Source: Geopsychrobacteraceae bacterium
GTDB taxonomy: Bacteria; Desulfobacterota; Desulfuromonadia; Desulfuromonadales; Geopsychrobacteraceae
Assembly: GCA_963664385.1 (NCBI GenBank)
Contig: OY761157.1
Coordinates: 1,207,634-1,271,633, forward strand
DNA length: 64,000 nucleotides
Direction: 5' to 3'
Each line of letters opens with the position of its first letter. Position 1 is the first letter of the stretch. Position numbers and translations under genes: made by a program. Below, piece after piece: positions 23,398 through 59,672 of the stretch. The notes beneath the pieces were generated by a model that worked only from the letters and a program-made list of their open reading frames with translations, searched no databases and was not told the DNA's origin.

Positions 23398-24003
23398 TCA
23401 GGCCAAACCACCCTTATCGGCAATAAAATCAATAATCGCCTGTAACCCCTCCCCCTTTTTCAGGTTGGAGAAGACAAAGGGGCGTTCACCGCGCATTTTC
23501 TTGCTGTCACGATCCATAACATCCAAGTCAGCTCCTACCAACGGCGCCAGGTCGGTTTTATTGATGACCAGCAGATCGGATCGCGTGATTCCAGGCCCAC
23601 CTTTACGGGGAATTTTATCACCGGCGGAAACATCGATAACATAGATACACAGGTCGGCTAATTCAGGTGAAAAGGTCGCGGCAAGGTTGTCACCGCCCGA
23701 TTCGATAAAAACCACTTCCAAGTCCGGAAATGCCGTACATAATTCGTCAACAGCTGCCAGGTTGATGGAGGCATCTTCACGGATGGCTGTATGGGGGCAG
23801 CCTCCGGTCTCGACACCACGGATGCGGTCGGCGGTCAGAGCTTCGGAACGAACCAGGAACTGATAGTCTTCACTGGTATAGATATCATTGGTGATCGCGG
23901 CGATCTGGTACTTTTCGCGCATTGCTTTGCACAATGCATCAAGCAGTGCCGTTTTACCTGACCCAACCGGGCCACCAATGCCAACGCGTAATGGAGAACT
24001 CAT
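23398..24003 (-). CDS. ureG: Urease accessory GTPase
   Basis: P-loop GPVGSGKT and UreG-specific ESGGDNL and NKTDL motifs. Size is 201 aa. Confidence 0.95.
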
Positions 24004-24713
24004 GATCTGAATAACCTCGTATATTGGGTTTCGTGACTGATGGAGGTCCAGTCAACCATCGGTGTTGCGGCACCGATATCGTTTATGTCAGTGTGCAGTG
24101 CTTTGTTCGCAGCTTTCAGGATAACCTCTTCCAGAGCTGCAGTTGTCATCTGCCCGGCGGTTTGCCCCAGGGGAACCAGGCGCACACCAGCCGAGATCAG
24201 GTTGACTGCTGTCGCGTGCAGATAGGCGTTTAAGGCCGCTGCCAAGGGGATATCACTATAGGCTGCTGCCAAAGCGACAGCTAAAGGATAAGCCGGTTTA
24301 CGCTGTTCCTGTTGCAGCCGCTGCTGCCATGGCAGCAAGCGTTCGTCAGGCCAAACCTTCATCAACATCTGCCAGAAAGCCGCGCCCTGGGCACTACTTT
24401 CGAGGGCCATTTCCTTACTGCCGCGCATGACATCAGCCAATTCAAACAGGGTCCATAGCTGCTCAGCATCCTCAGCCCCAGCTGCCTCATAACCACGGGC
24501 GAACAAAACGGCATCGGTCTGAGCCGAGCCATAAAGCAGAACCGTTTTCAACCAGGCCGTCAGGCTGACGTCATCTTTAACCAGACCGACATCCACAGCG
24601 TACTCAACGCCATGGGAATAGGTATAGGCACCAACCGGAAATGACGGCGATAACCAGGTCATAAGACGCAGCAGGGAAACACCCTGCACCGTAAGATCAG
24701 TGGGCATGCTCAT
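24000..24713 (-). CDS. ureF: Urease accessory protein UreF
   Basis: UreF pattern [24 protein letters not shown]. Start trimmed to ATG 24713 (MSMPTDL), overlapping the ureE 3' end. The start is uncertain. Confidence 0.85.
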
Positions 24714-25206
24714 GGTTGTGTTCGTGCTGGTGCTCATGACTATGAGCGTGGCCATGACCACTGCTGTAAGCGCCACCTTCAGGAGCGAAAGGTGCCTGAT
24801 TCGGTGTCAGCTCGGCGCCCAACCCTTCCAACATCTGCCCCAGAACATGATCGGCTGCGATACGTAGATGGGTCGCATCGAGAACCTGCACCGGAGCATG
24901 CCGATTTCCGATGTGCCAGGCGACTTTCGCAGTGTGGACAGGGGATTGGCAGCTAATATCGATGACATCCTCAACCGCTGCACAAACCTTGATAAAACTG
25001 CCATCTTCAAGTTGCAAGGCACCCCCGTCATCGAGCCGGGTCGCATGGGGGAGATCGAGCAGAAACGACTCGCCACTATCGTCGTTCAAACGAATCCTAC
25101 GCTTGTGGCGATCATCATAAATAAGGGTCAGGGTTGCACTATGGCAACCCTGCCAGGTGTGAGGTAAATAATATTGAATAGCACGTCTCATGGCAAAATC
25201 TTTCAT
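24697..25206 (-). CDS. ureE: Urease accessory metallochaperone UreE
   Basis: UreE fold-length protein with a His-rich tail ([20 protein letters not shown]). The start is ambiguous (25233, 25206 or 25191). Confidence 0.85.
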   Translation of the reverse strand: MKDFAMRRAIQYYLPHTWQGCHSATLTLIYDDRHKRRIRLNDDSGESFLLDLPHATRLDDGGALQLEDGSFIKVCAAVEDVIDISCQSPVHTAKVAWHIGNRHAPVQVLDATHLRIAADHVLGQMLEGLGAELTPNQAPFAPEGGAYSSGHGHAHSHEHQHEHNHEHAH

Positions 25207-25236
25207 TTGTGCAGTGGCATCAAAAATTACCACGGG

Positions 25237-25341
25237 AGGTCTTCAGAGGCTTCCTTGGAAGGGTGTCTATCGCCCGGATGGCGATAGTCAAGCCCCACGG
25301 ATGGGTTCATGCGTCCCTGGAAAGGGAGCCTCTGAAGGCCT
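25237..25341. repeat. 105-bp imperfect inverted-repeat element between ureC and ureE
   Basis: About 27-nt arms (AGGTCTTCAGAGGCTTCCTTGGAAGGG / CCCTGGAAAGGGAGCCTCTGAAGGCCT) enclose a perfect 8-bp hairpin, CTATCGCCcggatGGCGATAG. Confidence 0.7.
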
Positions 25342-25354
25342 TGCTTCGCAAAAG

Positions 25355-27064
25355 CTAAAATAAGAAATATCTTTGTGCCATAGGCACAACCGTTGCTGGT
25401 TGACAGGTCAGTAGTTGACCATCAGCCCGCACCTCGTAAGTTTCCGGATCGACCTCAATTTTAGGCAGATAACTGTTTAACAGCAGATCCTTTTTACCGA
25501 TATTGCGAGTATTCCTGACCGCCAGCAACGTCTTGTTCAGACCCAGCTGCTGGGCCAACCCGGCATCCAGCCCGGCCTGGGAGACAAAGGTTACGGAACT
25601 GGCCTGCAAGGAACGACCGAAGCTACCGAACATGGGTCGGTAATGGACCGGTTGTGGCGTCGGAATTGAAGCGTTCGGATCGCCCATGGCCGCAGCGGCA
25701 ATGGTTCCCGATTTCAGGACAATATCCGGCTTGACACCAAAGAACATCGGTTTCCACAACACCAGGTCAGCCAGCTTACCGACTTCAATGGAGCCGACAT
25801 AATCGGCGATACCATGGGTGATAGCCGGGTTAATCGTGTACTTGGCAATGTAGCGCTTGACCCGGAAATTATCGTTCCCGGCACCATCTTCAGGCAAAGA
25901 ACCGCGCTGCTGCTTCATCTTGTCGGCAGTTTGCCAGGTGCGGATAATCACCTCACCGATACGCCCCATGGCCTGGCTGTCAGAAGCGATAATCGAAAAA
26001 GCACCCAGATCATGCAAAATATCCTCGGCAGCGATGGTTTCACGGCGGATACGACTTTCGGCGAAAGCGACATCCTCCTGAATCCGACTATCGAGATGAT
26101 GACAGACCATCAGCATGTCGAGGTGTTCATCCAGGGTATTAACGGTAAAGGGTCGGGTCGGGTTGGTGGATGATGGCAACACATTGGCCAGCCCACACAG
26201 CTTGATAATATCAGGAGCATGACCGCCGCCAGCACCTTCGGTATGGAAGGTGTGAATGACCCGGTCCTTGAAAGCAGCCGCGGTCGTCTCGACAAAGCCC
26301 GACTCATTCAGGGTATCGGTGTGAATGGCCACCTGCACGTCAAACTTGTCTGCAACACTCAGACAGTTATCGATGGCCGCAGGAGTTGTGCCCCAGTCTT
26401 CATGCAGTTTCAGACCACAGGCACCGGCGCGAATCTGTTCTTCCAGAGACGCAGGCAAAGTAGCGTTCCCCTTACCGAAAAAGCCCAGATTGATAGGTAA
26501 TCCTTCGGCCGCCTGCAGCATGCGCCCCAGGTGCCAGGCTCCCGGTGTACAGGTGGTTGCATTGGTCCCTTCTGCAGGACCGGTACCACCACCAAGCATG
26601 GTTGTGACCCCTGAATAGAGGGCATCGTCAACCTGCTGAGGGCAGATAAAATGGATATGAGAATCGATGCCGCCAGCCGTCAGGATGCGCCCTTCACCGG
26701 CAATCGCTTCGGTACCCGGACCGATAATAATATCGACTCCTTGCTGGGTATCGGGATTACCAGCCTTGCCGATACCACAGATGCGGCCATCCTTAATGCC
26801 GACATCCGCCTTGATAATCCCCCAGGTATCGATAATTAAAGCATTGGTAATAACGGTGTCCACCGCGCCCTGCTCACGGCTGACCTGGGACTGTCCCATG
26901 CCGTCACGGATAACCTTACCACCACCGAATTTGACCTCGTCACCATAGCAGGTGCGATCTTCTTCCACTTCGATGATCAGGCCGGTATCGGCCAGACGGA
27001 CTTTATCGCCAACAGTCGGGCCGAACATTGCTGCATATTCGGCACGTTCAATCTGATATGCCAT
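25355..27064 (-). CDS. ureC: Urease alpha subunit
   Basis: 569 aa with the urease active-site region ([11 protein letters not shown], carbamylated-Lys context [16 protein letters not shown]). Confidence 0.97.
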
Positions 27065-27067
27065 CGC

Positions 27068-27379
27068 TTACCCCTCCAGCTTGCCGTTGACCAGACCGTT
27101 AAAACCGTAAATGGTTCCAGTTCCAGCAACTTTAACTAATTGCACTTCCCGGCTCTGTCCTGGCTCAAAACGAACGGCGGTTCCGGCGGGAATATCAAGG
27201 CGGAAACCACGCGCCTGCTCGCGATCAAATTGAAGCGCTGCATTGGTTTCATAAAAGTGATAGTGAGACCCGACCTGAACGGGGCGATCACCGGTATTGG
27301 CAACCGTCACAGTCAGTGTTTCGCGGCCACCATTAAGCTCGATTGTGCCAGCTTGAGTGATAACTTCACCTGGTATCAT
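27068..27379 (-). CDS. ureB: Urease beta subunit
   Basis: 103 aa, MIPGE.. start, [13 protein letters not shown] motif. Confidence 0.95.
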
Positions 27380-27389
27380 TAGTGGCCTC

Positions 27390-27692
27390 CTAGCGGATCG
27401 GGTTATGGACGGTCACCAACTTGGTGCCATCGGGAAAGGTCGCTTCGACCTGAACATCATGAATCATTTCCGCGACCCCTTCCATAACCTGCTCACGGGT
27501 CAGCACTGTGGCACCGTCACGCATTAACTCGGCAACCGTTTTGCCATCACGAGCCCCCTCTACGACATAGTCGGTGATCAGCGCAATTGCTTCCGGGTAG
27601 TTCAGTTTTACACCCCGTTCCAAGCGGCGTCTGGCTACAACCGCAGCCATGGCAACCAGCAGTTTATCTTTTTCTCTCGGACTTAAATTCAC
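27390..27692 (-). CDS. ureA: Urease gamma subunit
   Basis: 100 aa, [12 protein letters not shown].. canonical UreA N-terminus. Confidence 0.95.
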
Positions 27693-27785
27693 GGATGCTC
27701 TCCTGTGCGCTTACGCTGTTCGCGATTTCAGATTTGAAATTTCAGATCTCAGACAAAAGCGGAATATCTATTTCTTCTATTCTTC

Positions 27786-27845
27786 AACGCAAAGGCGACT
27801 TGCTCTGCGCCTTCTCGTTACTCTGCGTCTCTGCGTTAAAAAAAT
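27786..27845. repeat. REP-like intergenic repeat, copy A
   Basis: ACGCAAAGGCG ... GCGTCTCTGCGTTAAAAAA. The 19-nt right end is identical to 37145-37163 and the 11-nt left end is identical to 37054-37064. The two ends are imperfect inverted repeats of each other. Confidence 0.7.
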
Positions 27846-27863
27846 TCTTTAGTAGCTAAAAAA

Positions 27864-28736
27864 CTAAATCTGCCACAAGCGCGGTAACTTCTCTGGCAAC
27901 CCAGCAACTTTATGCCTGAACGCTGCCCAGAAACGACCATAGTGTTGCCGTAGCAATAATGGGTCTTGTCCCAGCCAGCGCATCAGCAGTAAACCATCCA
28001 GACAGGTCGCACCTACTTTCAAGCTTTCAGGTACTCCCATCAGCTCGCGTGCCGTTTCAAGCTGTTCAGCGGCATCAGGAGCGGCATAGATCGCTGTCGC
28101 GCAAGCGCGTTGCCCGGCAAACCCGGCCGGGCTGTCAAGGACACGGGCAATGTCCTGATCGAGCAGCAACGCATCGGCCCAGACCAGGCGTTCATTAACC
28201 CGCACTTCCCAGGCATCGCGCAGTAGTCCTTCACTGAACTGCTCACCCCCAGCCAGACGCCCCAGAACCAGCATTTCACCGGCTAACAGTTTGGCATCAG
28301 CGGCCATGGTGACCTTGGTTTTACGCCGCAACCGCGCCTGTTCAAAAACAATTGTCTCCTGCGGTAGCCATTCAAGCCAACTGTTACTATTAGCCATCAA
28401 CTCAACATCAATATGGCTGTCAGGGCCACTGGAGCGGTAGACTTTTTCAGCCGCCTGCACCGTCGCCATAGCGGCACAATCACTGCCGACATCAAGGCGG
28501 ATATCGAGCCGATCACCACCAACCAGGCCGCCTGCGGTTGATGAGATAACCGCCACCGGGATATCCTGAGCCGCCGGGTGTGGAAACAGGACGCGCAGCG
28601 GATCGCTCTGATACAGGTGCAGTAAACGGGTCTGCCCGGTTTTGAAGGCGAACCCTATCTCTGCGACACCATGCACTTCGATGGCGCGTTGAGACTGCCC
28701 CCCTTGGGGTTTAGACTGTGAGATAGCTACGGACAT
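27864..28736 (-). CDS. ureD: Urease accessory protein UreD/UreH
   Basis: 290 aa in the UreD position with the family pattern (..LYQSDPLRVLFPHP..). Overlaps the urtE 3' end. Confidence 0.85.
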   Translation of the reverse strand: MSVAISQSKPQGGQSQRAIEVHGVAEIGFAFKTGQTRLLHLYQSDPLRVLFPHPAAQDIPVAVISSTAGGLVGGDRLDIRLDVGSDCAAMATVQAAEKVYRSSGPDSHIDVELMANSNSWLEWLPQETIVFEQARLRRKTKVTMAADAKLLAGEMLVLGRLAGGEQFSEGLLRDAWEVRVNERLVWADALLLDQDIARVLDSPAGFAGQRACATAIYAAPDAAEQLETARELMGVPESLKVGATCLDGLLLMRWLGQDPLLLRQHYGRFWAAFRHKVAGLPEKLPRLWQI

Positions 28737-29406
28737 CTTGTGCGTTCAGATCCTCTTTTTTCCCGGCCATGACCACTTCACCACGATCCATGACAACATA
28801 AGTATCGGCCAGTTCCTGGGCAAAATCAAAGTACTGTTCAACCAGTAGAATGGCCATATCACCACGATCAGCAAGCAGCCGGATTACGCGACCGATATCC
28901 TTGATGATTGACGGCTGAATCCCTTCGGTTGGTTCATCCAAAACCAGCAACCGCGGCCGGGTTACCAGGGCCCGGGCAATAGCCAGCTGTTGCTGCTGAC
29001 CACCGGACAAGTCACCGCCACGGCGGCCAAGCATTTCCTTTAAAACCGGAAACAGTTCGAAAATCTCATCCTGAACATGGCGCAAGGAACGCGGTACACA
29101 AGCAAATCCCGTACGCAGGTTTTCTTCAACGGTGAGCAGGGGAAAAATTTCACGCCCCTGAGGGACAAAAGCAATCCCCTTGGCGGCTCGTTCATAGGGA
29201 GGCATTTTGGTAATATCGTTAGCTTCCCACAGGATTTGACCATTGTGCACCGGGTGCTGGCCAACAACCCCGCGCATCAGGCTGGTTTTACCTACCCCAT
29301 TACGCCCGAGCACACAGGTCACCTCACCAATATTCGCTTCGCAACTGACGCTTTTCAGCGCCTGGCTGGCACCATAATAAAGATCGATATTTTTTACTTT
29401 CAACAT
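28711..29406 (-). CDS. urtE: Urea ABC transporter ATP-binding protein UrtE
   Basis: Walker A GRNGVGKTS, signature LSGGQQQ, Walker B LLVLDEP. Start set to ATG 29406 (MLKVKNIDLYYG), 2 nt after the urtD stop. Confidence 0.9.
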   Translation of the reverse strand: MLKVKNIDLYYGASQALKSVSCEANIGEVTCVLGRNGVGKTSLMRGVVGQHPVHNGQILWEANDITKMPPYERAAKGIAFVPQGREIFPLLTVEENLRTGFACVPRSLRHVQDEIFELFPVLKEMLGRRGGDLSGGQQQQLAIARALVTRPRLLVLDEPTEGIQPSIIKDIGRVIRLLADRGDMAILLVEQYFDFAQELADTYVVMDRGEVVMAGKKEDLNAQDVRSYLTV

Positions 29407-29408
29407 GA

Positions 29409-30197
29409 TTAACGCCCCAGATAAACTTCGATAACGCGCTCGTCGTTCTGTACCTTGTCCAGGGAGCCTTCTGCCAGGACACTCCCTTCGTGCATAACCG
29501 TAACCCGACAATCAAGAGCCCGCACAAAGTCCATATCGTGCTCAACAACCACGACAGAGCGTTGCTCTTTTTCAGCAATACGTTTCAGCAGGATCGCTGT
29601 CTGTTCGGTTTCAGCATCGGTCATTCCGGCGACCGGCTCGTCAACCAGAAGGAGTTCCGGCTCCTGCATCAGCAACATGCCGATCTCAAGCCACTGTTTC
29701 TGACCGTGAGAAAGATCACCCGCCATTTTCTGACATTGTTCTGTCAAGGCAATCGTCTGCAGAACCTCTTCGATACGATCACGCTGTTTCCCTTTCAATT
29801 TGAACCAGAGTGACTCAAAAACACCACGCTGTCCGGCCAGGGCAAGTTCCAGATTATCAAAAACACTTAAGGTTTCAAATACCGTCGGCTTCTGAAATTT
29901 ACGGCCAATGCCAAGGTTGGCCACCTCTGCTTCATCGAGGCGGGTCAAATCGATATTATTGCGATAGACAACGCGCCCTAGGTCAGGGCGGGTTTTACCG
30001 GTAATAACATCCATCATGGTCGTTTTGCCCGCCCCGTTGGGACCAATGATCGCCCGCATCTTGCCGGTTTTGACATAAAAGCTGAGGTCATTTAAAGCTT
30101 TGAAACCATCGAAGGACACGGTCACCCCGTCCAGATAGAGAATTGTATCTCCGGCAGCGTCAAAATCAGTCTTCTTTAACAGCACACTCGCTTCCAT
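29409..30197 (-). CDS. urtD: Urea ABC transporter ATP-binding protein UrtD
   Basis: Walker A GPNGAGKTT, signature LSHGQKQ, Walker B LLLVDEP. Confidence 0.9.
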   Translation of the reverse strand: MEASVLLKKTDFDAAGDTILYLDGVTVSFDGFKALNDLSFYVKTGKMRAIIGPNGAGKTTMMDVITGKTRPDLGRVVYRNNIDLTRLDEAEVANLGIGRKFQKPTVFETLSVFDNLELALAGQRGVFESLWFKLKGKQRDRIEEVLQTIALTEQCQKMAGDLSHGQKQWLEIGMLLMQEPELLLVDEPVAGMTDAETEQTAILLKRIAEKEQRSVVVVEHDMDFVRALDCRVTVMHEGSVLAEGSLDKVQNDERVIEVYLGR

Positions 30198-31354
30198 CAG
30201 TGACCTCCTTCTTCCTGAACCGATGAGCCACCACTGTCATTCGAACGCGCATGCTTCTTTTTGTAGAGGTCAAACAAACCCACCACACCGCGGGGTAAAA
30301 ACAGAGTTGCGACAATAAACAATCCACCCAGGGCATACAACCACATCTCGGGCAGGGCGCCAGTGAAATAGGTTTTCCCGTAATTGACCAGCAATGCTCC
30401 CAGAGCCGCACCAAATAAAGTGCCACGTCCGCCGACAGCAACCCAGATGACTATTTCTATGGAGTTGGCCGGGGCAAATTCGCTGGGGTTGATAATCCCG
30501 ACCTGGGGAACATAAAGGGCACCGGCGATACCGGCCATAACTCCAGACACCACAAAAACAAACAGCTTGTATTTTTCAACCCGGTAACCGAGAAAGCGAA
30601 TGCGACTTTCGGCATCGCGCACCGCGACAAGAACGCGCCCCAAGCGGGAATTTACGATAATCCGGCAACCAATATAGCATAGAGCCAGGGCCAGGGCGGA
30701 GGCGACAAACAAGGCAATCCGGGTCCCGTCGGCCTGTAAGTTAAAGCCAAGAATATCTTTAAAATCGGTCAGGCCATTGTTGCCACCGAACCCCATATCG
30801 TTGCGGAAGAAGGCCAGCAACAGAGCATAGGTCAGAGCCTGGCTGATGATTGACAGGTAAACACCGGTGACCCGGGAGCGGAATGCGAACCAGCCGAAAA
30901 CAAAAGCCAGAATTCCGGGGATGACCATGACCATCACCATGGCAAAAATAAAATTATCAAATCCGTACCAGTACCAGGGCAACTCCTTCCAGTTCAAGAA
31001 GACCATAAAGTCTGGGAGGATGGGATTACCATAAACACCACGGTCACCGATCTGACGCATCAGGTACATCCCCATGGCGTAGCCACCCAGAGCGAAAAAA
31101 GCACCATGCCCCAGACTCAGAATGCCGCAGAAGCCCCAGATCAGGTCGACACTTAAAGCCAACAGAGCAAAGGTCAGGTACTTGCCACACAAGCTGACCA
31201 GGTAGGTGGGGATATGCAATGCCGAACCTTCAGGCACCAGCAGATTACAAACCGGGACGACCACGGCAACCAGGGCCAGAAAACCAAGCAGGATCAATCC
31301 GCCACGATCAGAACGCAGCAGCTTCGAAGGATTGTTCGCTAAAGCCATGATCAA
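30197..31354 (-). CDS. urtC: Urea ABC transporter permease UrtC (LivM-type)
   Basis: Polytopic branched-chain-type permease in the conserved urt gene order. Confidence 0.9.
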   Translation of the reverse strand: MIMALANNPSKLLRSDRGGLILLGFLALVAVVVPVCNLLVPEGSALHIPTYLVSLCGKYLTFALLALSVDLIWGFCGILSLGHGAFFALGGYAMGMYLMRQIGDRGVYGNPILPDFMVFLNWKELPWYWYGFDNFIFAMVMVMVIPGILAFVFGWFAFRSRVTGVYLSIISQALTYALLLAFFRNDMGFGGNNGLTDFKDILGFNLQADGTRIALFVASALALALCYIGCRIIVNSRLGRVLVAVRDAESRIRFLGYRVEKYKLFVFVVSGVMAGIAGALYVPQVGIINPSEFAPANSIEIVIWVAVGGRGTLFGAALGALLVNYGKTYFTGALPEMWLYALGGLFIVATLFLPRGVVGLFDLYKKKHARSNDSGGSSVQEEGGH

Positions 31355-32994
31355 TTCTCCACTGCACGCCCCTTAAGAGCAAATAAGCCTCTTGGACGTT
31401 TTTGAATAAACAGGATTATCAGGACCAGAATCAGAATCTTGCCAAGTACGGCACCGGCGTAAGGCTCAAGAAATTTATTACCAAGCCCTAAGGAGAACGC
31501 CCCGATCAGGGTCCCCCACAGGTTACCAACGCCACCGAAAACCACCACCATGAAGGAATCAATAATGTAGGACTGGCCAAGGTTCGGGCTGACGTTATCG
31601 ATCTGACTCAGGGCGACCCCGGCCATGCCGGCGATACCGGAGCCTAAGCCGAAGGTCAAAGCATCAACACGACCGGTACGGGTTCCCATCGACTGCGCCA
31701 TGCGCCGATTTTGGGTGACTGCTCGCATCTGCAGTCCAAAATAGCTGCGCCGCAGCAACAATCCAATGGCACCAAGAACAACCAGGCTAAAGAGAATGAT
31801 CCAGATGCGGTTATAGGTGAGTACCAGGCCACTGTCAAAGGTCATCGCCCCACTCATCCATGAAGGGTTACTGACTTCCTGATTGGTCGGGCCGAAAATT
31901 GAACGGATCAACTGCTGCAGGATCAGACTGACCCCCCAGGTTGCCAGCAGGGTTTCAAGGCTACGTCCATAGAGAAAGCGGATAACACCACGCTCAATGA
32001 CGATCCCGACCATTCCGGCGACCAGAAAGGCCGCCGGAATGGCCAGAATCAAAGCCCAATCAATTGCGCCAGGGAAATAGTTATGGAACAACTGCTGGAC
32101 CATGTAAGTGGTATAGGCACCGATCATAACCATTTCGCCATGGGCCATATTGATAACCCCCATAACCCCAAAAGTTATAGCCAGGCCGATGGCCGCAAGC
32201 AGTAAAACCGAACCAAGGCTTAACCCCCGGAACAGATGGCCAACACCGTTCCAAAAAGACAGGCGCAGTTCGATTTTCTGAATCGCTTTCTTGGCAGCGT
32301 TGAAAACTGCGCTATCGGTTTCTACAGGTTTGCCTTCATTATCCAGCGCCGTTACCTGGAGCAGGAGGTTTTTTATTTCCGGATTGGGATTTTCTGCCAG
32401 CACAGCAACGGCAGCAACCCTCTCTGTGGTTACGCTGGATGAAAACAGCTGAATTGCGGCCATGGTCAATTCCAGCTGATTTTTAATCTCCGCAACCTCT
32501 TCCCGGTCATAAGCCTTTTTCAACAGGGGAAGCATCTCCGGCGAACGGGTTTTAAACAATGCATCAATAGATTCCAAACGACGGGCCGGGTCTTTACTCA
32601 TCAAGCTCAAGCCGCCAATTGCACCTCTGAGCACACCACGCAGACGATTATTGACCCGAACTTTTGTCAGTTCGTTTTTCGGTAATTGTTCCAGTTCGGT
32701 CATTGTCAACGGATCGATCAGCACAATAATCTGCCCCTGGGCATCACCGATAACCACCCGGTCATCACTCTTTCTGGTGTACAGGTTGCCAGCGAGCATT
32801 GCTTCAAGAATAGGGACAGCCCGATCGTCACCCGTTTCTGCAAGGGTTTCGACGGCATCACCTTTCTTGCTATAACTCCCCTCGGCCAGCGCGGCGACCT
32901 GATCGGCAAAATCAGCCCACACAGAAGAGCTTGCCAACAGCAGCACGACCCAGCAGCACATCAATATTCTGATCATTTTATTTATCTGAGGCAT
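31351..32994 (-). CDS. urtB: Urea ABC transporter permease UrtB (LivH-type with a long N-terminal periplasmic extension)
   Basis: Signal/TM segment, then about 250 aa of soluble extension, then a LivH-like permease core. Start trimmed to ATG 32994 or 32976, because the TTG-initiated extension would run through an intercistronic hairpin. Confidence 0.85.
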   Translation of the reverse strand: MPQINKMIRILMCCWVVLLLASSSVWADFADQVAALAEGSYSKKGDAVETLAETGDDRAVPILEAMLAGNLYTRKSDDRVVIGDAQGQIIVLIDPLTMTELEQLPKNELTKVRVNNRLRGVLRGAIGGLSLMSKDPARRLESIDALFKTRSPEMLPLLKKAYDREEVAEIKNQLELTMAAIQLFSSSVTTERVAAVAVLAENPNPEIKNLLLQVTALDNEGKPVETDSAVFNAAKKAIQKIELRLSFWNGVGHLFRGLSLGSVLLLAAIGLAITFGVMGVINMAHGEMVMIGAYTTYMVQQLFHNYFPGAIDWALILAIPAAFLVAGMVGIVIERGVIRFLYGRSLETLLATWGVSLILQQLIRSIFGPTNQEVSNPSWMSGAMTFDSGLVLTYNRIWIILFSLVVLGAIGLLLRRSYFGLQMRAVTQNRRMAQSMGTRTGRVDALTFGLGSGIAGMAGVALSQIDNVSPNLGQSYIIDSFMVVVFGGVGNLWGTLIGAFSLGLGNKFLEPYAGAVLGKILILVLIILFIQKRPRGLFALKGRAVEN

Positions 32995-33025
32995 GTTCGT
33001 TAACCAATTGATTGAGTCAAGTTTA

Positions 33026-33051
33026 GAAGGGGAACCAGAAGGCTCCCCTTC
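33026..33051 (-). other. Intercistronic stem-loop between urtA and urtB
   Basis: Perfect 8-bp stem GAAGGGGA/TCCCCTTC with a 10-nt loop. The position is typical of mRNA-stabilising hairpins after binding-protein genes. Confidence 0.5.
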
Positions 33052-33092
33052 AGACAACTTTCGTTTGTCAAATTCTTGCTTTCTACAGAATT

Positions 33093-34373
33093 TTACTTTG
33101 CTTCATAAACGGGTTTTTCACAGTTGCCACACACCCAGGGGTAGGTCCAGTCAGCGGTCAGCTTGGCACTTTCCGGAATAAAGTCACTCCAGGCATCGCC
33201 GACGACAACACCGTCAGTGCTCCAGACGGTATCCATCTGGCCATCAGCCTGGATTTCACCAATCAGAACCGGCTTGGACAGGTGATGGTTGGTATTCATG
33301 ACCGCAACACCACCGGTGAGGTTTTTAACTTTTTGGCCGTACATGGCTTGGCGAACAGCGTCCACATTGGTGGTACCGGCCTGCTTAACAGCTTGAACCC
33401 ACATGTTGAAACCAATGTAATGAGCTTCCATAGGGTCGTTGGTAACGCGCTTGTCATCTTTAATAAAGGCATGCCATTTCTTGATGAAGGCAGCGTTTTC
33501 AGGGGTATCAACCGACATGAAGTAGTTCCAGGCAGTCAGGTGGCCAACCAATGGTTCGGTATCAAGGCCGGCAAGTTCTTCTTCACCGACGGAGAAAGCA
33601 ACAACCGGGATCTCCTCAGCGCTGATTCCCTGGTTAGCAAGTTCTTTGTAGAATGGGACGTTGGCATCACCGTTAATGGTTGAAACAACGGCGGTCTTTT
33701 TACCGGCAGAAGCAAATTTCTTAACGTCGGCGACAATGGTCTGCCAGTCGGAATGACCGAATGGTGTGTAGTTTTCCATGATGTCAGCATCTTTTACCCC
33801 TTTGGAGTGGAGGTAAGAGCGCAAAATCTTGTTGGTGGTACGAGGATAAACATAGTCAGTACCGAGCAGAACCCAACGCTTGGCAGCGCCACCGTCTTCG
33901 CTCATCAGGTAATCAACAGCAGGAACGGCCTGCTGATTTGGAGCAGCACCGGTGTAGAATACGTTGCGAGAGCTCTCTTCACCTTCGTACTGAACCGGGT
34001 AAAACAGCAGGCTGTTCAGTTCTTCAAAAACTGGCAGGACAGATTTACGTGATACTGAAGTCCAGCAACCGAAAACAACGTCAACCTTGTCCTTCTCGAT
34101 CAATTCACGTGCTTTTTCAGCGAACAGTGGCCAGTTAGAAGCCGGGTCAACAACAACAGCTTCAACTTTCTTGCCAAGCAAGCCACCGTTTTTATTGAGA
34201 TCATCAACTAGCATCAGCATGGTATCCTTAAGAGTTGTTTCACTGATAGCCATAGTGCCTGACAGAGAATGCAGAACACCTACCTTGATGGTATCGGCAG
34301 CAAATACCTGCTGACTGAACACTGTTGCGAGAACCAGCAGCACAAGAATCAATCCTTTACCGAATGTCTTCAT
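33093..34373 (-). CDS. urtA: Urea ABC transporter substrate-binding protein UrtA
   Basis: Signal peptide MKTFGKGLILVLLVLATVFSQQVFA. Type I PBP with GCWTSVSRKSVLPVFEE..FYPVQYEG and GAAPNQQ. Start at ATG 34373, with AAAGGAGAAA upstream. Confidence 0.93.
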   Translation of the reverse strand: MKTFGKGLILVLLVLATVFSQQVFAADTIKVGVLHSLSGTMAISETTLKDTMLMLVDDLNKNGGLLGKKVEAVVVDPASNWPLFAEKARELIEKDKVDVVFGCWTSVSRKSVLPVFEELNSLLFYPVQYEGEESSRNVFYTGAAPNQQAVPAVDYLMSEDGGAAKRWVLLGTDYVYPRTTNKILRSYLHSKGVKDADIMENYTPFGHSDWQTIVADVKKFASAGKKTAVVSTINGDANVPFYKELANQGISAEEIPVVAFSVGEEELAGLDTEPLVGHLTAWNYFMSVDTPENAAFIKKWHAFIKDDKRVTNDPMEAHYIGFNMWVQAVKQAGTTNVDAVRQAMYGQKVKNLTGGVAVMNTNHHLSKPVLIGEIQADGQMDTVWSTDGVVVGDAWSDFIPESAKLTADWTYPWVCGNCEKPVYEAK

Positions 34374-34608
34374 CACACCTTTTCTCCTTTTAACGTTGAG
34401 TGATTTATGGAACCTGTTGTCCGCCTCTGCGAACTTTAAATAATAAAAAACCCACACCAACCCTCTTCGGGTCGATGTGGGCGCCATTGCCCTGATCTTA
34501 CCGGGAATCAGAATCTCAATGATTTGATTCTGAACCTTTTCTCTATGGGACAGTTGTATCACCTTTACGGCAACCAGCAATCGAGTGATGCACTGGTCCC
34601 AGTATTGA

Positions 34609-34623
34609 GCAACAGGTGTGCCA
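34609..34623 (-). promoter_or_regulatory. Sigma-54 (-24/-12) promoter of the urt-ure array
   Basis: The minus strand reads TGGCACacctgTTGC, an exact consensus, 236 nt upstream of the urtA ATG. Confidence 0.8.
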
Positions 34624-34766
34624 AGTTACAAAATTATTATTCGTGCTACTTATGGTTTTAAAAATGGCCCAAGTCTTGCTTTATTTATATAAGATATAAA
34701 GGGAATGCGCAGAAATAGAGCTGTTCATCAGAGCTTGATGACGGGACAATTTAGCAAAAGTAGCGC

Positions 34767-34780
34767 GGGACACATGTCCC
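34767..34780. promoter_or_regulatory. Perfect 14-bp palindrome, candidate activator/repressor site
   Basis: GGGACAcaTGTCCC lies 145-160 bp upstream of the -24 element. An extra GGGACA half-site is at 34743-48, and a second palindrome TCATCA-N5-TGATGA is at 34725-41. Confidence 0.4.
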
Positions 34781-34893
34781 ACACAGGCAGCGTTCAACCT
34801 TCAGAAAACATGACACAATCGATCAATAAATAGGCAGAAATCATGTCATTGGCGATTTTTTAAACACCAGAAGCCATTGCCAGGAGCAATATA

Positions 34894-37011
34894 ATGAGTA
34901 ACAAAAACAACCGTCCGGTCAAAATCGGGCTCATCTTCTCAACGACCGGAACAACGTCTATTGTTGAAGAAGGACAGTTACAAGCGTGCCTCCTGGGCAT
35001 TGATGAAGTCAATAACCGTGGCAATATCCGCTTTAAAGCCATTATTGAAGATATCAAGTCCAATCCGCAAATCGCGGCAGAAAAAGCCCATAAACTGTTA
35101 ACCGAAGATCATGTTGATCTGCTGATTGGCTGCTGGACTTCTGCTTGCCGCAAGGCGGTATTACCTGTCCTGGAAGAAACAGGTGGTTTACTCCTTTATC
35201 CAAATAATTATGAAGGGCTCGAATCGCACCCCCAGGTCTTTTATCTTGGCGCCGTACCAAACCAACAAGTTGAGTCCATCCTGAGTTGGGTTGTCGCCAA
35301 CCTGGCGAGTCGCTTTATTTTACTTGGATCTGATTATATCTACCCACGTTCAGCAAATCAGCAGGTTCGTCAATGGGTTGAGCGCATCGATCCGGAAATG
35401 ATTATTCACGAACAATACTTCCCCCTGGGGCATTCCGACTTCGGCAATTTCATTCATGATCTCTCCCCACTACTGACAGATGACAAGCCCGTCGTCATTG
35501 TCTCTAATCTGGTCGGATCGAGTGTTGTCGATTTTTATCGCCAGTACCATCAGGCCGGATTCAACGCCCCGATCATCAGTCCGATCACTTCCGAACGCGA
35601 GATTGCAGCCATCGGATCTGAGGCCGCTTCAGGCCATTATTGCACCTCTGGATACTTCCAGGCTTTGAGTAATGAAGAAAATAAACGGTTTATCAGTCAC
35701 TATTATTCACGCTTTGGAGAAACCACCATCAATGGCGCCATGGAGTTCGCCTACGATGCTATCCGGCTCCTTGAACAAACCTATGACCAGGACCTGCTGA
35801 AGATTACTGAGCCTCAACAGCGCAATGAACTATTGCGCGAACGCTTGAAGCACCAGTCCCTTGATGCGCCCCAGGGAAAACTGATCGTCGATCCGCAAAA
35901 CCAGCACCTTTGGCTGTGGTCGCGGATTGGCAAGATTAAAAATGACAGCAGCATCGATGTTGTCTGGGAATCTGCCGGGCCAATTCCCCCTTATCCCTTT
36001 AGTGACACTCAGAAGACGAGCGGACAGCAACCGGCTTACCACTATAAACGCGACCCATTCAATACGATTCTTGGCCGCAACCCGAAACTGCGCGAGACCA
36101 AGCGGGTTGCCGAAGTCGCATCAAAAACCCGCTCCAACGTTCTGCTTGAAGGGGAAACCGGCTGTGGAAAATGCCTTTTCGCTAAAGCGATACACCAGGG
36201 CAGCATTCTGGCAAACGAGCCCTTCGTAGAACAACCCTGTGCCGGTTTCAGTGAAGTGGAATTACAGATTCAACTCTTTGGGGACGCATCGGGTAAAAAC
36301 CCAGGAGCACTTGAGCTTGCCAACGGGGGGACGCTGCTGCTTAAGAATATTGGCGAACTCCCTCTGACCATTCAGCAGCAGTTGCTCGACACCCTTCAAA
36401 AAGGACAGCTTCTACGTCATGGTGAAGAGCATTTAAGGCCTCTTGAAATCCGTATCATTTCAACAACAACCAGAGATCTACTACAGGAAATCGCGTTTAA
36501 TGGTACTTTTTTAAGTGATCTCTTCAACCATCTGGCTGTATTTACCATCACCCTGCCGGCGTTACGTGAATTTAGCGATGATATTCCGGAGTTGTGCTCC
36601 CATTTTTTAAGGCAACTTAACCAGAAAAATTCATCCCACAAGCAGCTTGCCGCAGAAACAATTACTGCATTAATGAGCTACTCCTGGCCCGGCAACATTC
36701 ATGAACTGATCATTACCATCGAACGCGCTTTTTACTTATCCCTTGATCAGGAAATTATCCGCCTTGGGCAATTGCCTGCACCAATCGCAAATAGCTGCAC
36801 CCAACGCAACCAGACAATACGACCAGTGGCTTCCGACCTAAAAAAGAAAACATCGCCCAACGCTGATTACAGCCTCATAGAACAAGCCATACGAGATGCT
36901 GACTACAACATGAGTCAGGCCGCCAAACAGCTGGGTATTTCTCGCAGCACCCTGTATCGGAAAATTGAAAAATTACAGATCAAGCTTAAAGCGGAAATTG
37001 TACGGAGGTGA
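34894..37011 (+). CDS. Regulator: cytoplasmic AmiC/UrtA-like ligand-binding domain fused to a degenerate sigma-54-EBP AAA+ domain and a Fis-type HTH
   Basis: The N-terminal ~375 aa carry AmiC/UrtA motifs (RPVKIGLIFSTTGTT, GCWTSACRKAVLPVLEE, GSDYIYPRSAN, DAPQGKLIVDPQNQH) and no signal peptide. The AAA+ region has GETGCGKC, GGTLLLKNI in place of the Walker B DE, and no GAFTGA. The HTH is MSQAAKQLGISRSTLYRKI. Confidence 0.85.
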   Translation: MSNKNNRPVKIGLIFSTTGTTSIVEEGQLQACLLGIDEVNNRGNIRFKAIIEDIKSNPQIAAEKAHKLLTEDHVDLLIGCWTSACRKAVLPVLEETGGLLLYPNNYEGLESHPQVFYLGAVPNQQVESILSWVVANLASRFILLGSDYIYPRSANQQVRQWVERIDPEMIIHEQYFPLGHSDFGNFIHDLSPLLTDDKPVVIVSNLVGSSVVDFYRQYHQAGFNAPIISPITSEREIAAIGSEAASGHYCTSGYFQALSNEENKRFISHYYSRFGETTINGAMEFAYDAIRLLEQTYDQDLLKITEPQQRNELLRERLKHQSLDAPQGKLIVDPQNQHLWLWSRIGKIKNDSSIDVVWESAGPIPPYPFSDTQKTSGQQPAYHYKRDPFNTILGRNPKLRETKRVAEVASKTRSNVLLEGETGCGKCLFAKAIHQGSILANEPFVEQPCAGFSEVELQIQLFGDASGKNPGALELANGGTLLLKNIGELPLTIQQQLLDTLQKGQLLRHGEEHLRPLEIRIISTTTRDLLQEIAFNGTFLSDLFNHLAVFTITLPALREFSDDIPELCSHFLRQLNQKNSSHKQLAAETITALMSYSWPGNIHELIITIERAFYLSLDQEIIRLGQLPAPIANSCTQRNQTIRPVASDLKKKTSPNADYSLIEQAIRDADYNMSQAAKQLGISRSTLYRKIEKLQIKLKAEIVRR

Positions 37012-37170: not shown

Positions 37171-37692
37171 TCACAAAGACCGGGTAATTCCCAGATAGCC
37201 GAGAATAAAATCAACAACCTGCTGCGGATCGTTAAGATCGAGCATGGGCAGACCGGTGGCACAGGGGGCATCACTGACAATAGCAACGATGTTGCGATGG
37301 GTCCCTTCTTCAGCCAGGGTTTGCGGTGGGCAATGGGCCTGGCGATGGACTTCTATCTTGGGCAGACTGCTGTCCTTGAACCCTTCAACAACAACCAGAT
37401 CAAGGCCGGTACAATACTGCTCCAGCAGAACCTCGAGCGCTGGAGGCTCAAGGTTCTGCTTAACCACAGCAGTCTTTTCCTTAGAGGCGATAATCGTAGT
37501 TGCAGCCCCTGCAGCGGTAAAGCGATAACTGTCCTTACCTGGCTTATCAATCTCAAAGTCATGAGCATCATGCTTAATGGCACCAACGCGATAACCTCGG
37601 CTGGACAGAATTTTGATGACTGCCTCAACCAGCGTTGTTTTACCAGTACCAGATAACCGGGCCACAAATGATATCGCTTTAGTCATGGACAT
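37171..37692 (-). CDS. mobB: Molybdopterin-guanine dinucleotide biosynthesis adapter protein MobB
   Basis: P-loop SGTGKTT and MobB motif GAIKHDAHDFEIDKPGKDS. Confidence 0.85.
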   Translation of the reverse strand: MSMTKAISFVARLSGTGKTTLVEAVIKILSSRGYRVGAIKHDAHDFEIDKPGKDSYRFTAAGAATTIIASKEKTAVVKQNLEPPALEVLLEQYCTGLDLVVVEGFKDSSLPKIEVHRQAHCPPQTLAEEGTHRNIVAIVSDAPCATGLPMLDLNDPQQVVDFILGYLGITRSL

Positions 37693-37700
37693 TAACCCAA

Positions 37701-38075
37701 TCAGGCTTCAGCAGCCAGGAGTTCTTCTTTTGAAACAGCTTCAGACTTGATCTTATCCAGCAACTCGGATAGTGCCGCCTTAACATTTTCGCGAATATCG
37801 CCAGCCACCAGAATGTACAACAAATCATCGCCCGGTTTCAGATCACCGCCGAAAGCTTTAACCGCGACACGATAAATCCCTGGAGCATTTTTTTCAAAAT
37901 CGGCACGAATCTCTTCAATCTTGTCATAATCAGGGGTGACCCGTACGCCAACGACTTCTTTTTTATCGCCACGGCTGGTTCCACGTACGATCCCATTATG
38001 ACAGAGAATCATCCCGACGTTTTTAATAAATTCCGGATCCTGCTTCCACGCATTGATCTGTTCCTGCATATTCAT
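37701..38075 (-). CDS. MoaE-like (molybdopterin synthase catalytic-subunit family) small protein
   Basis: The 124-aa protein aligns by eye with the MoaE core (HNGIVRG.., ..LKPGDDLLYILVAGDIRENVKAA..DKIK). It is shorter than E. coli MoaE. The call also rests on context among Moco genes. Confidence 0.5.
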   Translation of the reverse strand: MNMQEQINAWKQDPEFIKNVGMILCHNGIVRGTSRGDKKEVVGVRVTPDYDKIEEIRADFEKNAPGIYRVAVKAFGGDLKPGDDLLYILVAGDIRENVKAALSELLDKIKSEAVSKEELLAAEA

Positions 38076-38100
38076 GACAGCTCCTATATCTTCTCGATAC

Positions 38101-39315
38101 TCAATTTAAGGCTGAGGCAAAATCCATAACCTTTACCTCAGTTCCTGCGTCCAAACCACTACATTTATCATCAAGAATAATTAAACCATCAGCATGAGCC
38201 ATACTGATGTACTGTGAAGTCATCTGTTTTGTAACCGGAGTTGCGGTCACCACCGCCCCGTCATTTTCAAGCTTTACCCTGACAAAGTCCCAGCGCTTTT
38301 CGCGCCCCTTTACGGGTTGTGCCAAGCGGGCGATACGCCCTGCCGGGTGAATGTCCTGGATTCCGCTCAGCTTTCGCAAGACCGGTATCAGGTAAGCCAT
38401 AATGTTGGTCAAGAATGCCGCCGGGTAACCAGGCATTCCCAAAAATAATTTCTGATCACGGCGGGCCACCAACATTGGCCGCCCCGGCTTAATTCTGGTA
38501 CGATCAACCAGCAGGTCAAAACCACTCTGTTGCAGCAACGGCCTGATATAATCAAATTGTCCCATGGAAACACCGCCGGAAGTGACCACCAGATCATTCT
38601 GCCAGGCTAATTGGTCAAGCACCTTGGCAATTACCTCAGGCTTATCCTCAACCGGACCCCGGACGACAACATCCATCCCAAGCTGACGCAGGATATTGCT
38701 CAGCACATAGCTGTTACTTTCGTAGACCATTCCTGGCCGATGGCGCTCTCCAGGCTTAAGCAGTTCATTGCCGGTTATCAAAACGCCAACCCGAGGGCGC
38801 CGGTAGACCTTGACGCGATCGAGACCCAGATAGCACAGAACGCTATGCCGCACAGCATCGAGCCGCACCCCGGCTGGCAACACCAACTGCCCCTTGGCGA
38901 ATTCTTCGCCAATACGATTAATGTTATCACCCGGCTCAGGGGTTTCCTGAATCGTTACCCGCTGTTCTTGCAATGAGGTACTCTCAACGCGAATAACCGC
39001 CTGGGATCCTTCAGGGACTGTTGCGCCAGTCATTACCGCAACAGCATTTGGTCCACTGAGTTCTGCCCGCGGCAGATCCTCGGCGGCTAGCGTATCGAGC
39101 AAATTAAATTCGGAAACATCCAGCGAACCAAGGGCATAGCCGTCGACCGCGCTGCGCATGGTATCAGGAAAAGGGCGTGGTGTTTTTATCTCTGTCGCCA
39201 ACACATGCCCAAAGGTATCACCAATGTCAAGGCTGGTGGTTTCAACGGGTTGAACAGCGTCGAGCAACCGCGCCAGAGCAACAGGATAGGAAAGACTTTG
39301 AACCTCAGCACTCAT
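38101..39315 (-). CDS. moeA: Molybdopterin molybdotransferase MoeA
   Basis: 404 aa with MoeA N/linker domains and a MoCF_biosynth domain (VGVLITGNEL .. TSGGVSMG). Confidence 0.9.
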   Translation of the reverse strand: MSAEVQSLSYPVALARLLDAVQPVETTSLDIGDTFGHVLATEIKTPRPFPDTMRSAVDGYALGSLDVSEFNLLDTLAAEDLPRAELSGPNAVAVMTGATVPEGSQAVIRVESTSLQEQRVTIQETPEPGDNINRIGEEFAKGQLVLPAGVRLDAVRHSVLCYLGLDRVKVYRRPRVGVLITGNELLKPGERHRPGMVYESNSYVLSNILRQLGMDVVVRGPVEDKPEVIAKVLDQLAWQNDLVVTSGGVSMGQFDYIRPLLQQSGFDLLVDRTRIKPGRPMLVARRDQKLFLGMPGYPAAFLTNIMAYLIPVLRKLSGIQDIHPAGRIARLAQPVKGREKRWDFVRVKLENDGAVVTATPVTKQMTSQYISMAHADGLIILDDKCSGLDAGTEVKVMDFASALN

Positions 39316-39320
39316 GGTGA

Positions 39321-40340
39321 TTAACTCCTCCCGAACGGGCAGATTGGATAGTGGCAGACTTTACAGAAGTGACATAACCCGCCATGCCCGGAACGGGCGA
39401 TAGCATCAGGGGAAATTTTTTCTCCAGCGACAATCCTTGGCAGGAAAATGTCAAAGGCAGTGGCCGCAAAAACAAGAGCTGCAGCCGGAATGGCACATAC
39501 GGTCTTTTCCCCGACGTAGCCAATTGTGAAATTGTTGCCTGGTTGAACCGGGTTCCCCTTCTGCGAGAAAGTGATACCGGCATCTTTCATGGCCTGGGTC
39601 GTGACATCATCCGGATCAACCGAGGTTCCACCGGTAATCATCAGCAGATCACTTTTTTCAAGCGCTGAAGTTATCGCCTGACTGATAGTCTCCTGATTAT
39701 CCGGCAAGATATCAGCAACCGTAACCTCAATCCCGAGGGAGGCCATTTTCTTCTTCAATTTAGGGGTAAAACCATCCTTGATCTTACCGCTATAGACTTC
39801 ACTACCGGTGACCAGGATAGCTGCGGTTTTGACCCGATAAGGATCAACCGTTAACAGCGGTTCACTGAGTTCAGCTTTAATCTGATCAAATACCTCTCGG
39901 GGACAGGTCAGGGGGATAATACGGAAGGCTGCAACCTGCTTTCCATCACTAACCGGAAAGTCGGTATGAATAGTTGGCAGGGAGGGAATAGCAAGACGGT
40001 TGATGCGCTCAAGGCGCTCAGGATCGACGCGAAAAATTCCAGGACAAGTCGCATAAAAGCCAATTTTCCCCTCTTTGGGCTCTGCATCATAACGAATATT
40101 TGGCCCGGCGATAAGAGGAGCCAGGCTGCAGGCAGCTTCATTTTCATGAATCTCAACCTCATTCCCCTCCCAGACATAGATATTCTGCTTACCAAGACGA
40201 GCAAGAACCTCAAGATCCTCTTTTTCAATCACATGACCACGGCTGAACGCTACCCCCTTGACCCCTTTATCCACATCAACCACGGTTATGTCGTAGCCTA
40301 AAACCTGCCCTTCTGCCTGTGCCAGAGGTACCTTGATCAT
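39321..40340 (-). CDS. MoeA-related molybdopterin-binding (MoCF_biosynth) protein with a Cys-rich C-terminus
   Basis: MoCF_biosynth core (AAILVTGSEVYSGKIKD .. LLMITGGTSVDPDD) and a C-terminal GHGGLCHFCKVCHYPICPFG. Confidence 0.7.
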   Translation of the reverse strand: MIKVPLAQAEGQVLGYDITVVDVDKGVKGVAFSRGHVIEKEDLEVLARLGKQNIYVWEGNEVEIHENEAACSLAPLIAGPNIRYDAEPKEGKIGFYATCPGIFRVDPERLERINRLAIPSLPTIHTDFPVSDGKQVAAFRIIPLTCPREVFDQIKAELSEPLLTVDPYRVKTAAILVTGSEVYSGKIKDGFTPKLKKKMASLGIEVTVADILPDNQETISQAITSALEKSDLLMITGGTSVDPDDVTTQAMKDAGITFSQKGNPVQPGNNFTIGYVGEKTVCAIPAAALVFAATAFDIFLPRIVAGEKISPDAIARSGHGGLCHFCKVCHYPICPFGRS

Positions 40341-59645: not shown

Positions 59646-59672
59646 TCATTCGTTACCTGTGAAAAATTCGAC

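Follow-up and report, generated by a model that had tools for sequence, protein, structure and literature searches.

What can a relative of the sigma-54 activators still do at sigma-54 promoters once its catalytic motifs are gone? Control of such promoters is generally attributed almost wholly to their promoter-opening ATPase, and relatives of the enhancer-binding proteins (EBPs) lacking the GAFTGA motif are thought to have moved to sigma-70 promoters. The question is raised by a gene of a Geopsychrobacteraceae bacterium, located at 34894..37011 on the plus strand of a 64,000-nucleotide stretch of contig OY761157.1 (positions 1,207,634 to 1,271,633 of the forward strand; referred to below as the window) and divergent from an operon for urea uptake and urease. 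An earlier sequence-only reading of the window had described the product, here called the regulator, as an AmiC/UrtA-like sensor fused to a degenerate EBP module and a Fis-type helix-turn-helix (HTH). The present computational analysis predicts a catalytically dead, sigma-54-blind "pseudo-EBP" module. A dead relative of this kind, under selection at two conserved sigma-54 promoters and accompanied by intact sisters that offer a natural before-and-after comparison, makes it possible to test how an AAA+ activator becomes a non-catalytic regulator, and how substrate-specific and global nitrogen signals combine at a sigma-54 promoter. The reading favored here, to which a chance just short of even is given, is that a urea-sensing pseudo-EBP gates sigma-54 promoters that are fired by another activator.

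A binding-protein sensor on a degenerate activator scaffold

The open reading frame (ORF) of 705 amino acids, 100% identical to database entry P0001, was analyzed with Pfam, NCBIfam and an AF2 model. Pfam resolved four domains on the plus strand, which bears out the fusion described earlier: a type-I binding-protein sensor (residues 9-374, 34918..36015; Peripla_BP_5, E 2e-105, covering model positions 1-362 of 363), a degenerate sigma-54-interaction AAA+ core (residues 392-552, 36067..36549; Sigma54_activat, PF00158, E 1.7e-36), an AAA+ lid (residues 558-638, 36565..36807; AAA_lid_14, E 1.8e-19) and a Fis-type HTH (residues 660-694, 36871..36975; HTH_8, E 5e-13). Two further EBPs are encoded in the window (3908-5848 and 56740-58896); they match Sigma54_activat at E 1e-62 to 1e-63, and all canonical motifs are present in both, as had been stated. 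The AF2 model has a mean pLDDT of 85.8 (about 90 for the AAA+ domain) and flexible linkers at residues 370-384 and 639-654. In Foldseek, the AAA+ core superposes on the AAA+ domains of FleQ, FlrC and NtrC1 with TM scores of 0.86-0.89, and NtrX is among the best structural matches. The N-terminus (MSNKNNRPVKIG) has no hydrophobic signal segment, in line with the earlier observation, whereas the neighboring UrtA begins with an obvious signal peptide (MKTFGKGLILVLLVLATVFSQQVFA, followed by ADT). The regulator is therefore read as a cytoplasmic protein.

Catalytic motifs were called from HMMER alignments to ZraR, NifA and NtrX and from family alignments of 30 and 66 sequences, all of which agree. 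The Walker A remnant GETGCGKC (36151..36174) keeps the Gly and Lys residues of GxxxxGK, including Lys426, and departs from the family consensus GE[ST]GTGKE. The L1 loop remnant LFGDASGKNPGALEL (36274..36318) carries GKNPGA in place of GAFTGA/GSFTGA, with 7-8 residues deleted relative to the family, and NtrX aligns through this region without a gap. Walker B is GGTLLLKNI (36325..36351) instead of GGTLFLDEI, so that DE is replaced by KN. FLSDLFNHL (36508..36534) stands for FRxDLYYRL, with both Arg fingers lost. The losses of Walker B, GAFTGA and FRxDLYYRL and the altered Walker A had all been proposed by eye and were recovered in the profile and family alignments. The earlier reading had missed the loss of the sensor II Arg (GNIREL to GNIHEL; 36691-36708, family GNVREL, Arg to His), and it had counted a change in RERxxD as a lost signature; this motif is not catalytic and differs among intact relatives as well.

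A search of 5.8 billion proteins placed these losses in a family context. The sensor-EBP-HTH architecture occurs in more than 110 clusters from Deltaproteobacteria, Chloroflexi and Firmicutes, the Firmicute versions being about 950 amino acids long with an additional middle region. Contrary to what had been supposed, the fusion is thus not unusual, and nearly all of its carriers are intact; a literature search found no paper characterizing any member. PexR (PMC12754779) was considered as a precedent and ruled out, being a fully intact EBP. Among 66 aligned family members, 53 are fully canonical, 2 have single-residue variants only and 11 are degenerate. The degenerate set forms a single clade, P0001-P0011, whose 11 clusters are 61% or more identical to the window protein, with genome matches in metagenome-assembled genomes of Geopsychrobacteraceae. 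No independent degeneration was found elsewhere in the sensor-EBP family, either in the 66-sequence alignment or in the family survey, and the alignment indicates a single origin of the motif loss. GAFTGA, the Walker B Asp and both Arg fingers are missing throughout the 11 clusters; loss of the Walker B Glu is confined to the crown group and that of the sensor II Arg to P0001-P0004. This progressive decay argues for a nucleotide-independent function.

The decaying module is nevertheless constrained. Nonsynonymous divergence (dN) and its ratio to synonymous divergence (omega) were compared among the window protein and its counterparts in loci L001 and L002. The dN of the AAA+ core is 0.12 versus 0.76-1.37 in the two linkers; synonymous sites are saturated, and omega, given where computable, is about 0.06 for the AAA+ core and about 0.05 for the HTH, against 0.3-1.0 for the linkers. 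The AAA+ domain of the degenerate clade is still under purifying selection. The ratio of AAA+ to sensor identity is 0.73-0.82 within the clade versus 0.95-1.27 among intact pairs, showing that the constraint is relaxed relative to intact EBPs. A tail after the HTH, (L)QIKLKAEIVRR in the window (36976..37008, plus), is kept as IKLKAEIV(R/S) in all of P0001-P0011 and is absent from intact relatives; it is a candidate for a gained function, such as an additional DNA or protein contact. The motif losses themselves, and nothing further, speak for reading the regulator as a decaying relic without function or as an ordinary activator with misaligned motifs. Such a reading is hardly credible, since the frame is intact in 11 clusters, the folded domains have omega values of about 0.05-0.06 next to linkers at 0.3-1.0, and three independent profile or multiple alignments agree on the losses, which contradicts a misaligned sigma-54 activator.

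As for what the ancestor did, intact members lie divergent from operons of amide and urea metabolism: an amiS and aliphatic-amidase-type hydrolase operon (L003), an amidase and nitrile hydratase operon (L009), a formamidase and urea transporter operon (L085), and urtABCDE with or without urease (L006, L008 and L011). Since these operons are driven from sigma-54 promoters, the ancestral function is taken to be that of an amide/urea-sensing sigma-54 activator, and sequence comparison indicates that the window regulator descends from this widespread family. Its nearest intact sisters, P0012 and P0013, share 48-51% overall identity with it, keep every canonical AAA+ motif and are divergent from a near-identical UrtA.

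In a phmmer search of the PDB the sensor matched 8tg1 (1.7e-77), identified via Foldseek as a Caldicellulosiruptor urea-binding protein, cyanobacterial UrtA (about 1e-52) and AmiC (1pea, about 3e-48), and in the AF2 model it superposes on these solved relatives with TM scores of 0.83-0.90 (0.90 for 1pea). The N-domain motifs quoted earlier are all present in the translation. On the NCBIfam model of UrtA (TIGR03407), the regulator scores 301.6 bits against a cutoff of 492.75, compared with 590.8 bits for the neighboring UrtA. With 32% identity to UrtA versus 49-62% to the sensors of other family EBPs, the suggestion that the sensor is visibly paralogous to the adjacent UrtA is unsupported, and recent duplication of urtA is ruled out as its source.

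The sensor pocket, which is conserved, comprises W81, S83, Y102, N104, N105, E107, Y148, Y150, V207, I231 and T232. Urea in Prochlorococcus UrtA is contacted by W120, S122, Y141, Q144, E146, Y190, N246 and S274 (PMC10392092). The W, S, Y, E and Y of this set are kept in the regulator, and Q144, N246 and S274 are replaced by N, V and I. The family pocket is basically AmiC-like: residue 81 is Tyr, residue 105 is hydrophobic, and residues 207 and 232 are Val and Thr; the degenerate clade and the two intact urtA-linked sisters have Trp81 (UrtA W120) and Asn105 (UrtA Q144). This distribution suggests that the sensor was retuned from amides towards urea before the engine was lost. Urea is the likely, though not certain, ligand, or else a very small amide. 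The same type of sensor also heads proteins of about 1000 amino acids in Alphaproteobacteria (L013-L015, L019, L021-L023 and L045), which match query residues 1-371 only and may represent another cytoplasmic or membrane signaling fusion.

Promoters, palindromes and the urtA leader

The operon facing the regulator, urtABCDE-ureDABC(E)FG (23398..34373, minus), was assigned by NCBIfam, Pfam and sequence reading, consistent with the divergent urt-ure operon noted before. urtA, with its signal peptide (33093-34373, minus), is above the TIGR03407 cutoff at 590 bits; UrtB-E, UreD, UreC and UreG were identified by Pfam, ureA and ureB were read in the sequence, and ureE/F-like ORFs are present. The perfect sigma-54 promoter reported beside the regulator gene, TGGCACACCTGTTGCT (TGGCAC-N5-TTGCT; 34608-34623, minus), faces urtA. 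A second sigma-54-type promoter, TGGCCCAAGTCTTGCT (34665-34680, plus; one mismatch to consensus), lies ahead of the regulator gene; it had escaped the sequence-only reading, as had the two palindromes and the attenuator described below.

The intergenic region was compared in six loci of the degenerate clade (the window, L082, L001, L002, L080 and L079), whose regulators are 61-82% identical. The -24/-12 promoter of urtA is conserved in all six as a perfect match and is present in both sister loci. The regulator promoter stands back to back with it at a distance of 40-48 bp, and its GG/GC elements and spacing are invariant while the surrounding DNA is poorly conserved. With a conserved -24/-12 element ahead of its gene, the sigma-54-blind regulator is thus predicted to depend on sigma-54 for its own expression. 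Because both divergent -24/-12 elements are kept in six loci, a sigma-54 activator must still be required.

The same conservation bears on the possibility that the regulator has become a sigma-54-independent activator or dual regulator at housekeeping-sigma promoters, like VpsR, NtrX, TyrR and the NtrC of Rhodobacter capsulatus and Caulobacter. All well-studied GAFTGA-less EBPs act in this way (bioRxiv 10.1101/2023.06.06.543975; VpsR, PMC6158489), NtrX aligns across L1 without a gap, and weak -35/-10-like matches occur at 34633-34662. These matches lie in unconserved DNA and are not above chance, three being found against 4.5 expected in shuffled sequence, and no conserved -35/-10 pair is present. 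With the -24/-12 elements of both genes retained in six loci, one of them a perfect consensus, this explanation is improbable, although it suits the protein itself.

Two putative operators bracket both promoters in all six loci, with the palindromic motif GGGACA-N2-TGTCCC. Palindrome 1, GGGACAGTTGTATC (34547..34560), is conserved in the six loci, perfect in L002, L079 and L080, and fixed at 62-65 bp from the start of the urtA -24 element; its center falls near +43 relative to the urtA transcript and near -139 relative to the regulator promoter. It lies outside the range 34624-34893 that had been proposed for footprinting. Palindrome 2, GGGACACATGTCCC (34767..34780), likewise conserved in the six loci, lies 156-176 bp on the other side of that element; its center maps to about -177 of urtA and about +81 of the regulator gene, both counted from inferred start sites. 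It is the sole perfect copy of the motif in the window. Interpretation of the palindromes as RNA hairpins or terminators was rejected, as the terminator scan flagged one of them on the wrong strand and the transcribed sense has no U-tract.

The sister loci reveal an earlier layout. L083 has three tandem GACA-N2-TGTC sites upstream of the urtA promoter, 24 and 19 bp apart, and L084 has three TGTCC(C/G) half-sites upstream of its urtA promoter; these tandem upstream sites read as a classic enhancer array. The palindrome is absent from the intergenic regions of the more distant intact relatives L003-L011 and is common to the nearest sisters only. Since the core of the site is shared with the tandem array of the intact sisters, the motif is assigned to the lineage's own HTH. 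On the branch where the AAA+ engine died, the site layout was thus remodeled from a tandem upstream array to promoter-bracketing palindromes.

Downstream of its promoter, the urtA leader contains an attenuator of the ANTAR/GnfR type (34440..34495, minus), recognized by a terminator scan, folding and a match to the Geobacter GnfR site. An ANTAR/GnfR-type hairpin GGC-AAUGGC-GCC (34480-34491; CAGGGCAAUGGCGCC in context) overlaps the 5' arm of a GC-rich 14-bp terminator stem (34450-34482), which is followed by a U-tract (34440-34449), all on the minus strand. In Geobacter sulfurreducens, the GnfR-binding RNA site CAGGCAANGGCGCC overlaps the leader terminators of GnfM-activated sigma-54 nitrogen genes (PMC2995071). 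The leader element is found in eight loci (the window, L001, L002, L079, L080, L082, L083 and L084); compensatory changes affect 8 of 13 stem pairs across them, and L079 and L080 contain both hexaloops of the full ANTAR substrate, a type of loop marked by A at position 1 and G at position 4. Rfam gave only chance-level matches in the intergenic region, and the leader element has no Rfam family. Its match to the Geobacter site together with the covariation places the operon in a GnfM/GnfR-type nitrogen regulon with two checkpoints.

This attenuator also lends some weight to the idea that the palindromes serve a different protein, for example a global nitrogen EBP, while the regulator acts off DNA or at other places, for example by AmiC-like titration of a partner. 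Ligand-controlled inhibition of an ANTAR protein is the classical role of AmiC (1qo0), and GnfM could still be the palindrome binder. The idea sits poorly with an HTH as strongly conserved as omega of about 0.05 implies, and with a palindrome core shared with the tandem sites of the sisters, where the intact activators need a site of their own. The perfect palindrome does not recur elsewhere in the window, and no amiR-like gene is adjacent to the regulator, its flanking genes being urtA and mobB. Action of the regulator off DNA is accordingly regarded as quite improbable.

The surroundings contain several further features. In UrtB (31351-33057, minus) the permease domain is preceded by about 230 extra N-terminal residues with a HEAT-repeat match; the gene calls of L082 split the corresponding region off as a 103-aa gene of its own. 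Directly downstream of ureG lies a type I restriction-modification system (15766-23112, minus; hsdM 15766-17250, hsdS 18791-20311, hsdR 20308-23112) with a Schlafen/AlbA_2 + HATPase_c_4 + Fic-like_C gene (17250-18794) between hsdM and hsdS, and this region may be a defense island. A set of mobB, moaE, moeA and a MoCF_biosynth gene (37171-40340, minus) adjoins the 3' end of the regulator gene convergently; this molybdenum-cofactor synteny is kept in L001 and L082 and not in L002, and no functional link of the gene set to urea control is evident. The two canonical EBPs of the window are each divergent from a perfect sigma-54 promoter, forming modules at 3908-5987 and 56740-59646: the PrpR_N-type EBP (3908-5848) pairs with TGGCACCGTGGTTGCT (5972-5987), which drives pdxA-like and Fe-alcohol-dehydrogenase genes, and the PAS-type EBP (56740-58896) with TGGCACCGTTTTTGCT (59631-59646), which drives GNAT and metallo-beta-lactamase-fold genes.

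Proposed gating of promoters fired in trans

In the proposed mechanism, the regulator would bind, as dimers, the two palindromes that bracket the urtABCDE-ure promoter and its own. Being unable to remodel the sigma-54 polymerase, it would act as a ligand-controlled gate. Without ligand, both promoters would most likely be held off, either by bridging of the operators through the retained oligomerizing AAA+ scaffold, by occupancy of the site at about +43 of urtA, or by both; binding of urea in the sensor would release this hold. ATP-driven promoter opening would be supplied in trans by another EBP, for which a GnfM/NtrC-type nitrogen-status regulator is the most plausible source by analogy with Geobacter. 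Whether transcription passes the terminator in the urtA leader would be decided by a GnfR/ANTAR-type antiterminator. The genes would then be expressed only when nitrogen is limiting and substrate is present. The roles suggested earlier, namely a repressor, an anti-activator or a partner of an NtrC-type activator, remain the best-supported options, and the choice made among them here is a deduction from sequence.

Several points weigh against gating by repression. Alignment of the six loci shows no enhancer-like block conserved besides the palindromes, and no conserved site for a second activator, so that a scaffold or co-activator role fits at least as well as a repressor. The operator spacings (218, 220, 223, 231, 234 and 239 bp) are not consistently in helical phase, and phasing was dropped as an argument for looping. 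Both sisters already carry a half-site at the downstream position, which means that a downstream site need not indicate repression. The palindromes may instead be sites for GnfM. At the positions of N246 and S274, which contact urea in UrtA, the sensor keeps the AmiC-like V207 and I231. Occupancy of the palindromes by the regulator, the ligand, the sign of regulation, the trans-activator and the oligomeric state are all deduced.

The first of these points leads to the most serious competitor, in which the palindromes are true enhancers and the pseudo-EBP is a co-activator or scaffold that recruits or co-assembles with an active EBP upon urea binding. The dead subunit would give DNA targeting and signal sensing, and the partner would give ATP hydrolysis and the GAFTGA contact. 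Each palindrome, as one of the sole conserved enhancer-like elements, lies 139-177 bp upstream of one sigma-54 promoter, and purifying selection on an AAA+ fold whose catalysis is lost fits a subunit interface that has been kept. EBPs that interact or mix in pairs are on record, namely RedR1/RedR2 (PMC10084136) and PspF heterohexamers (PMC3467059). Arg fingers act in trans, however, and subunits without them would be expected to disable neighboring sites in a mixed ring. A partner gene is linked in none of the six loci, the tandem array that nucleates rings in the sisters has been lost, and no intact paralogue from the same large contigs appears among the top 120 matches, which is weak evidence. 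The co-activator explanation is on balance unlikely, though well above the other alternatives in its claim to attention.

Gating of promoters fired by another activator is therefore retained as the preferred reading. The broader statement that a ligand-sensing pseudo-enzyme parked at sigma-54 promoters controls them by gating, poisoning or recruiting an active EBP is put forward tentatively, as a proposition somewhat less than evenly probable. If true, it would represent the first example of a pseudo-AAA+ protein regulating sigma-54 transcription and would provide a natural split between "where and when", specified by a dead subunit, and "power", delivered by a trans-acting nitrogen-status ATPase. 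Urea uptake and urease genes would, if the leader assignment is true, constitute a new target class for GnfR-type antitermination. The intact family controls urease, amidase, formamidase and nitrile hydratase operons in anaerobes and Firmicutes and represents a large unstudied group of amide/urea-sensing sigma-54 activators, with potential as urea and amide biosensors.

Comparison with known systems

The closest relatives are the intact activators with AmiC/UrtA-like sensors (P0012, P0013, L003, L009 and L085), which have the same four modules, sensors 49-62% identical to that of the regulator and, like it, a position divergent from an amide or urea operon with a -24/-12 promoter. They keep GESGTGKE, GAFTGA/GSFTGA, LFLDEI, FRxDLYYRL and GNVREL, of which the first is altered and the others are lost in the window protein. 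The sisters P0012 and P0013 additionally have in common with it the GACA-N2-TGTC site core, the W81/N105 pocket and the ANTAR-type urtA leader; their sites form a tandem upstream array, whereas those of the window protein bracket the promoters.

AmiC of P. aeruginosa has the same cytoplasmic fold as the regulator sensor (TM 0.87-0.90, E 3e-48) and shares the Ser/Tyr/Tyr amide pocket (S83, Y102, Y148/Y150) as well as V207 and T232. Both the AmiC-AmiR system and the regulator are associated with an amide/urea nitrogen-scavenging operon that has an ANTAR-type terminator in its leader. AmiC, however, is a stand-alone protein that sequesters the antiterminator AmiR, whereas the sensor of the regulator is covalently fused to a DNA-binding pseudo-EBP. 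The GnfL/GnfM-GnfK/GnfR cascade of Geobacter sulfurreducens, from the same order Desulfuromonadales, likewise combines sigma-54 promoters with leader terminators overlapped by CAGGCAANGGCGCC, to be compared with CAGGGCAAUGGCGCC in the window. It has been described for nif, glnK and amtB and not for urt/ure, and includes no substrate-specific pseudo-EBP.

FleQ provides a precedent for a ligand-switched EBP-family protein at two sites of one promoter region. It binds two boxes at the pelA promoter and bends the DNA between them, and its ligand relieves this state without dissociation, converting repression to activation (PMC3424551). FleQ differs in being a competent sigma-54 activator elsewhere, in needing FleN and in sensing c-di-GMP within the AAA+ domain, and pelA is not a sigma-54 promoter.

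In the GAFTGA-less EBPs, namely NtrX, the NtrC of R. capsulatus and Caulobacter, VpsR and TyrR, the L1 loop is deleted or replaced as in the regulator, and VpsR also lacks the ATP-hydrolysis residues and does not need ATP (PMC6158489; bioRxiv 10.1101/2023.06.06.543975). Their sensors are receiver, ACT or PAS domains rather than an AmiC-type binding-protein domain. Their promoters are of the sigma-70 type and ATP binding or hydrolysis survives in most of them, whereas the regulator stands at conserved sigma-54 promoters with nearly the whole catalytic set gone. The regulator is set apart from these proteins by near-complete catalytic decay under purifying selection, by its retention at sigma-54 promoters and by the presence of a clear intact outgroup.

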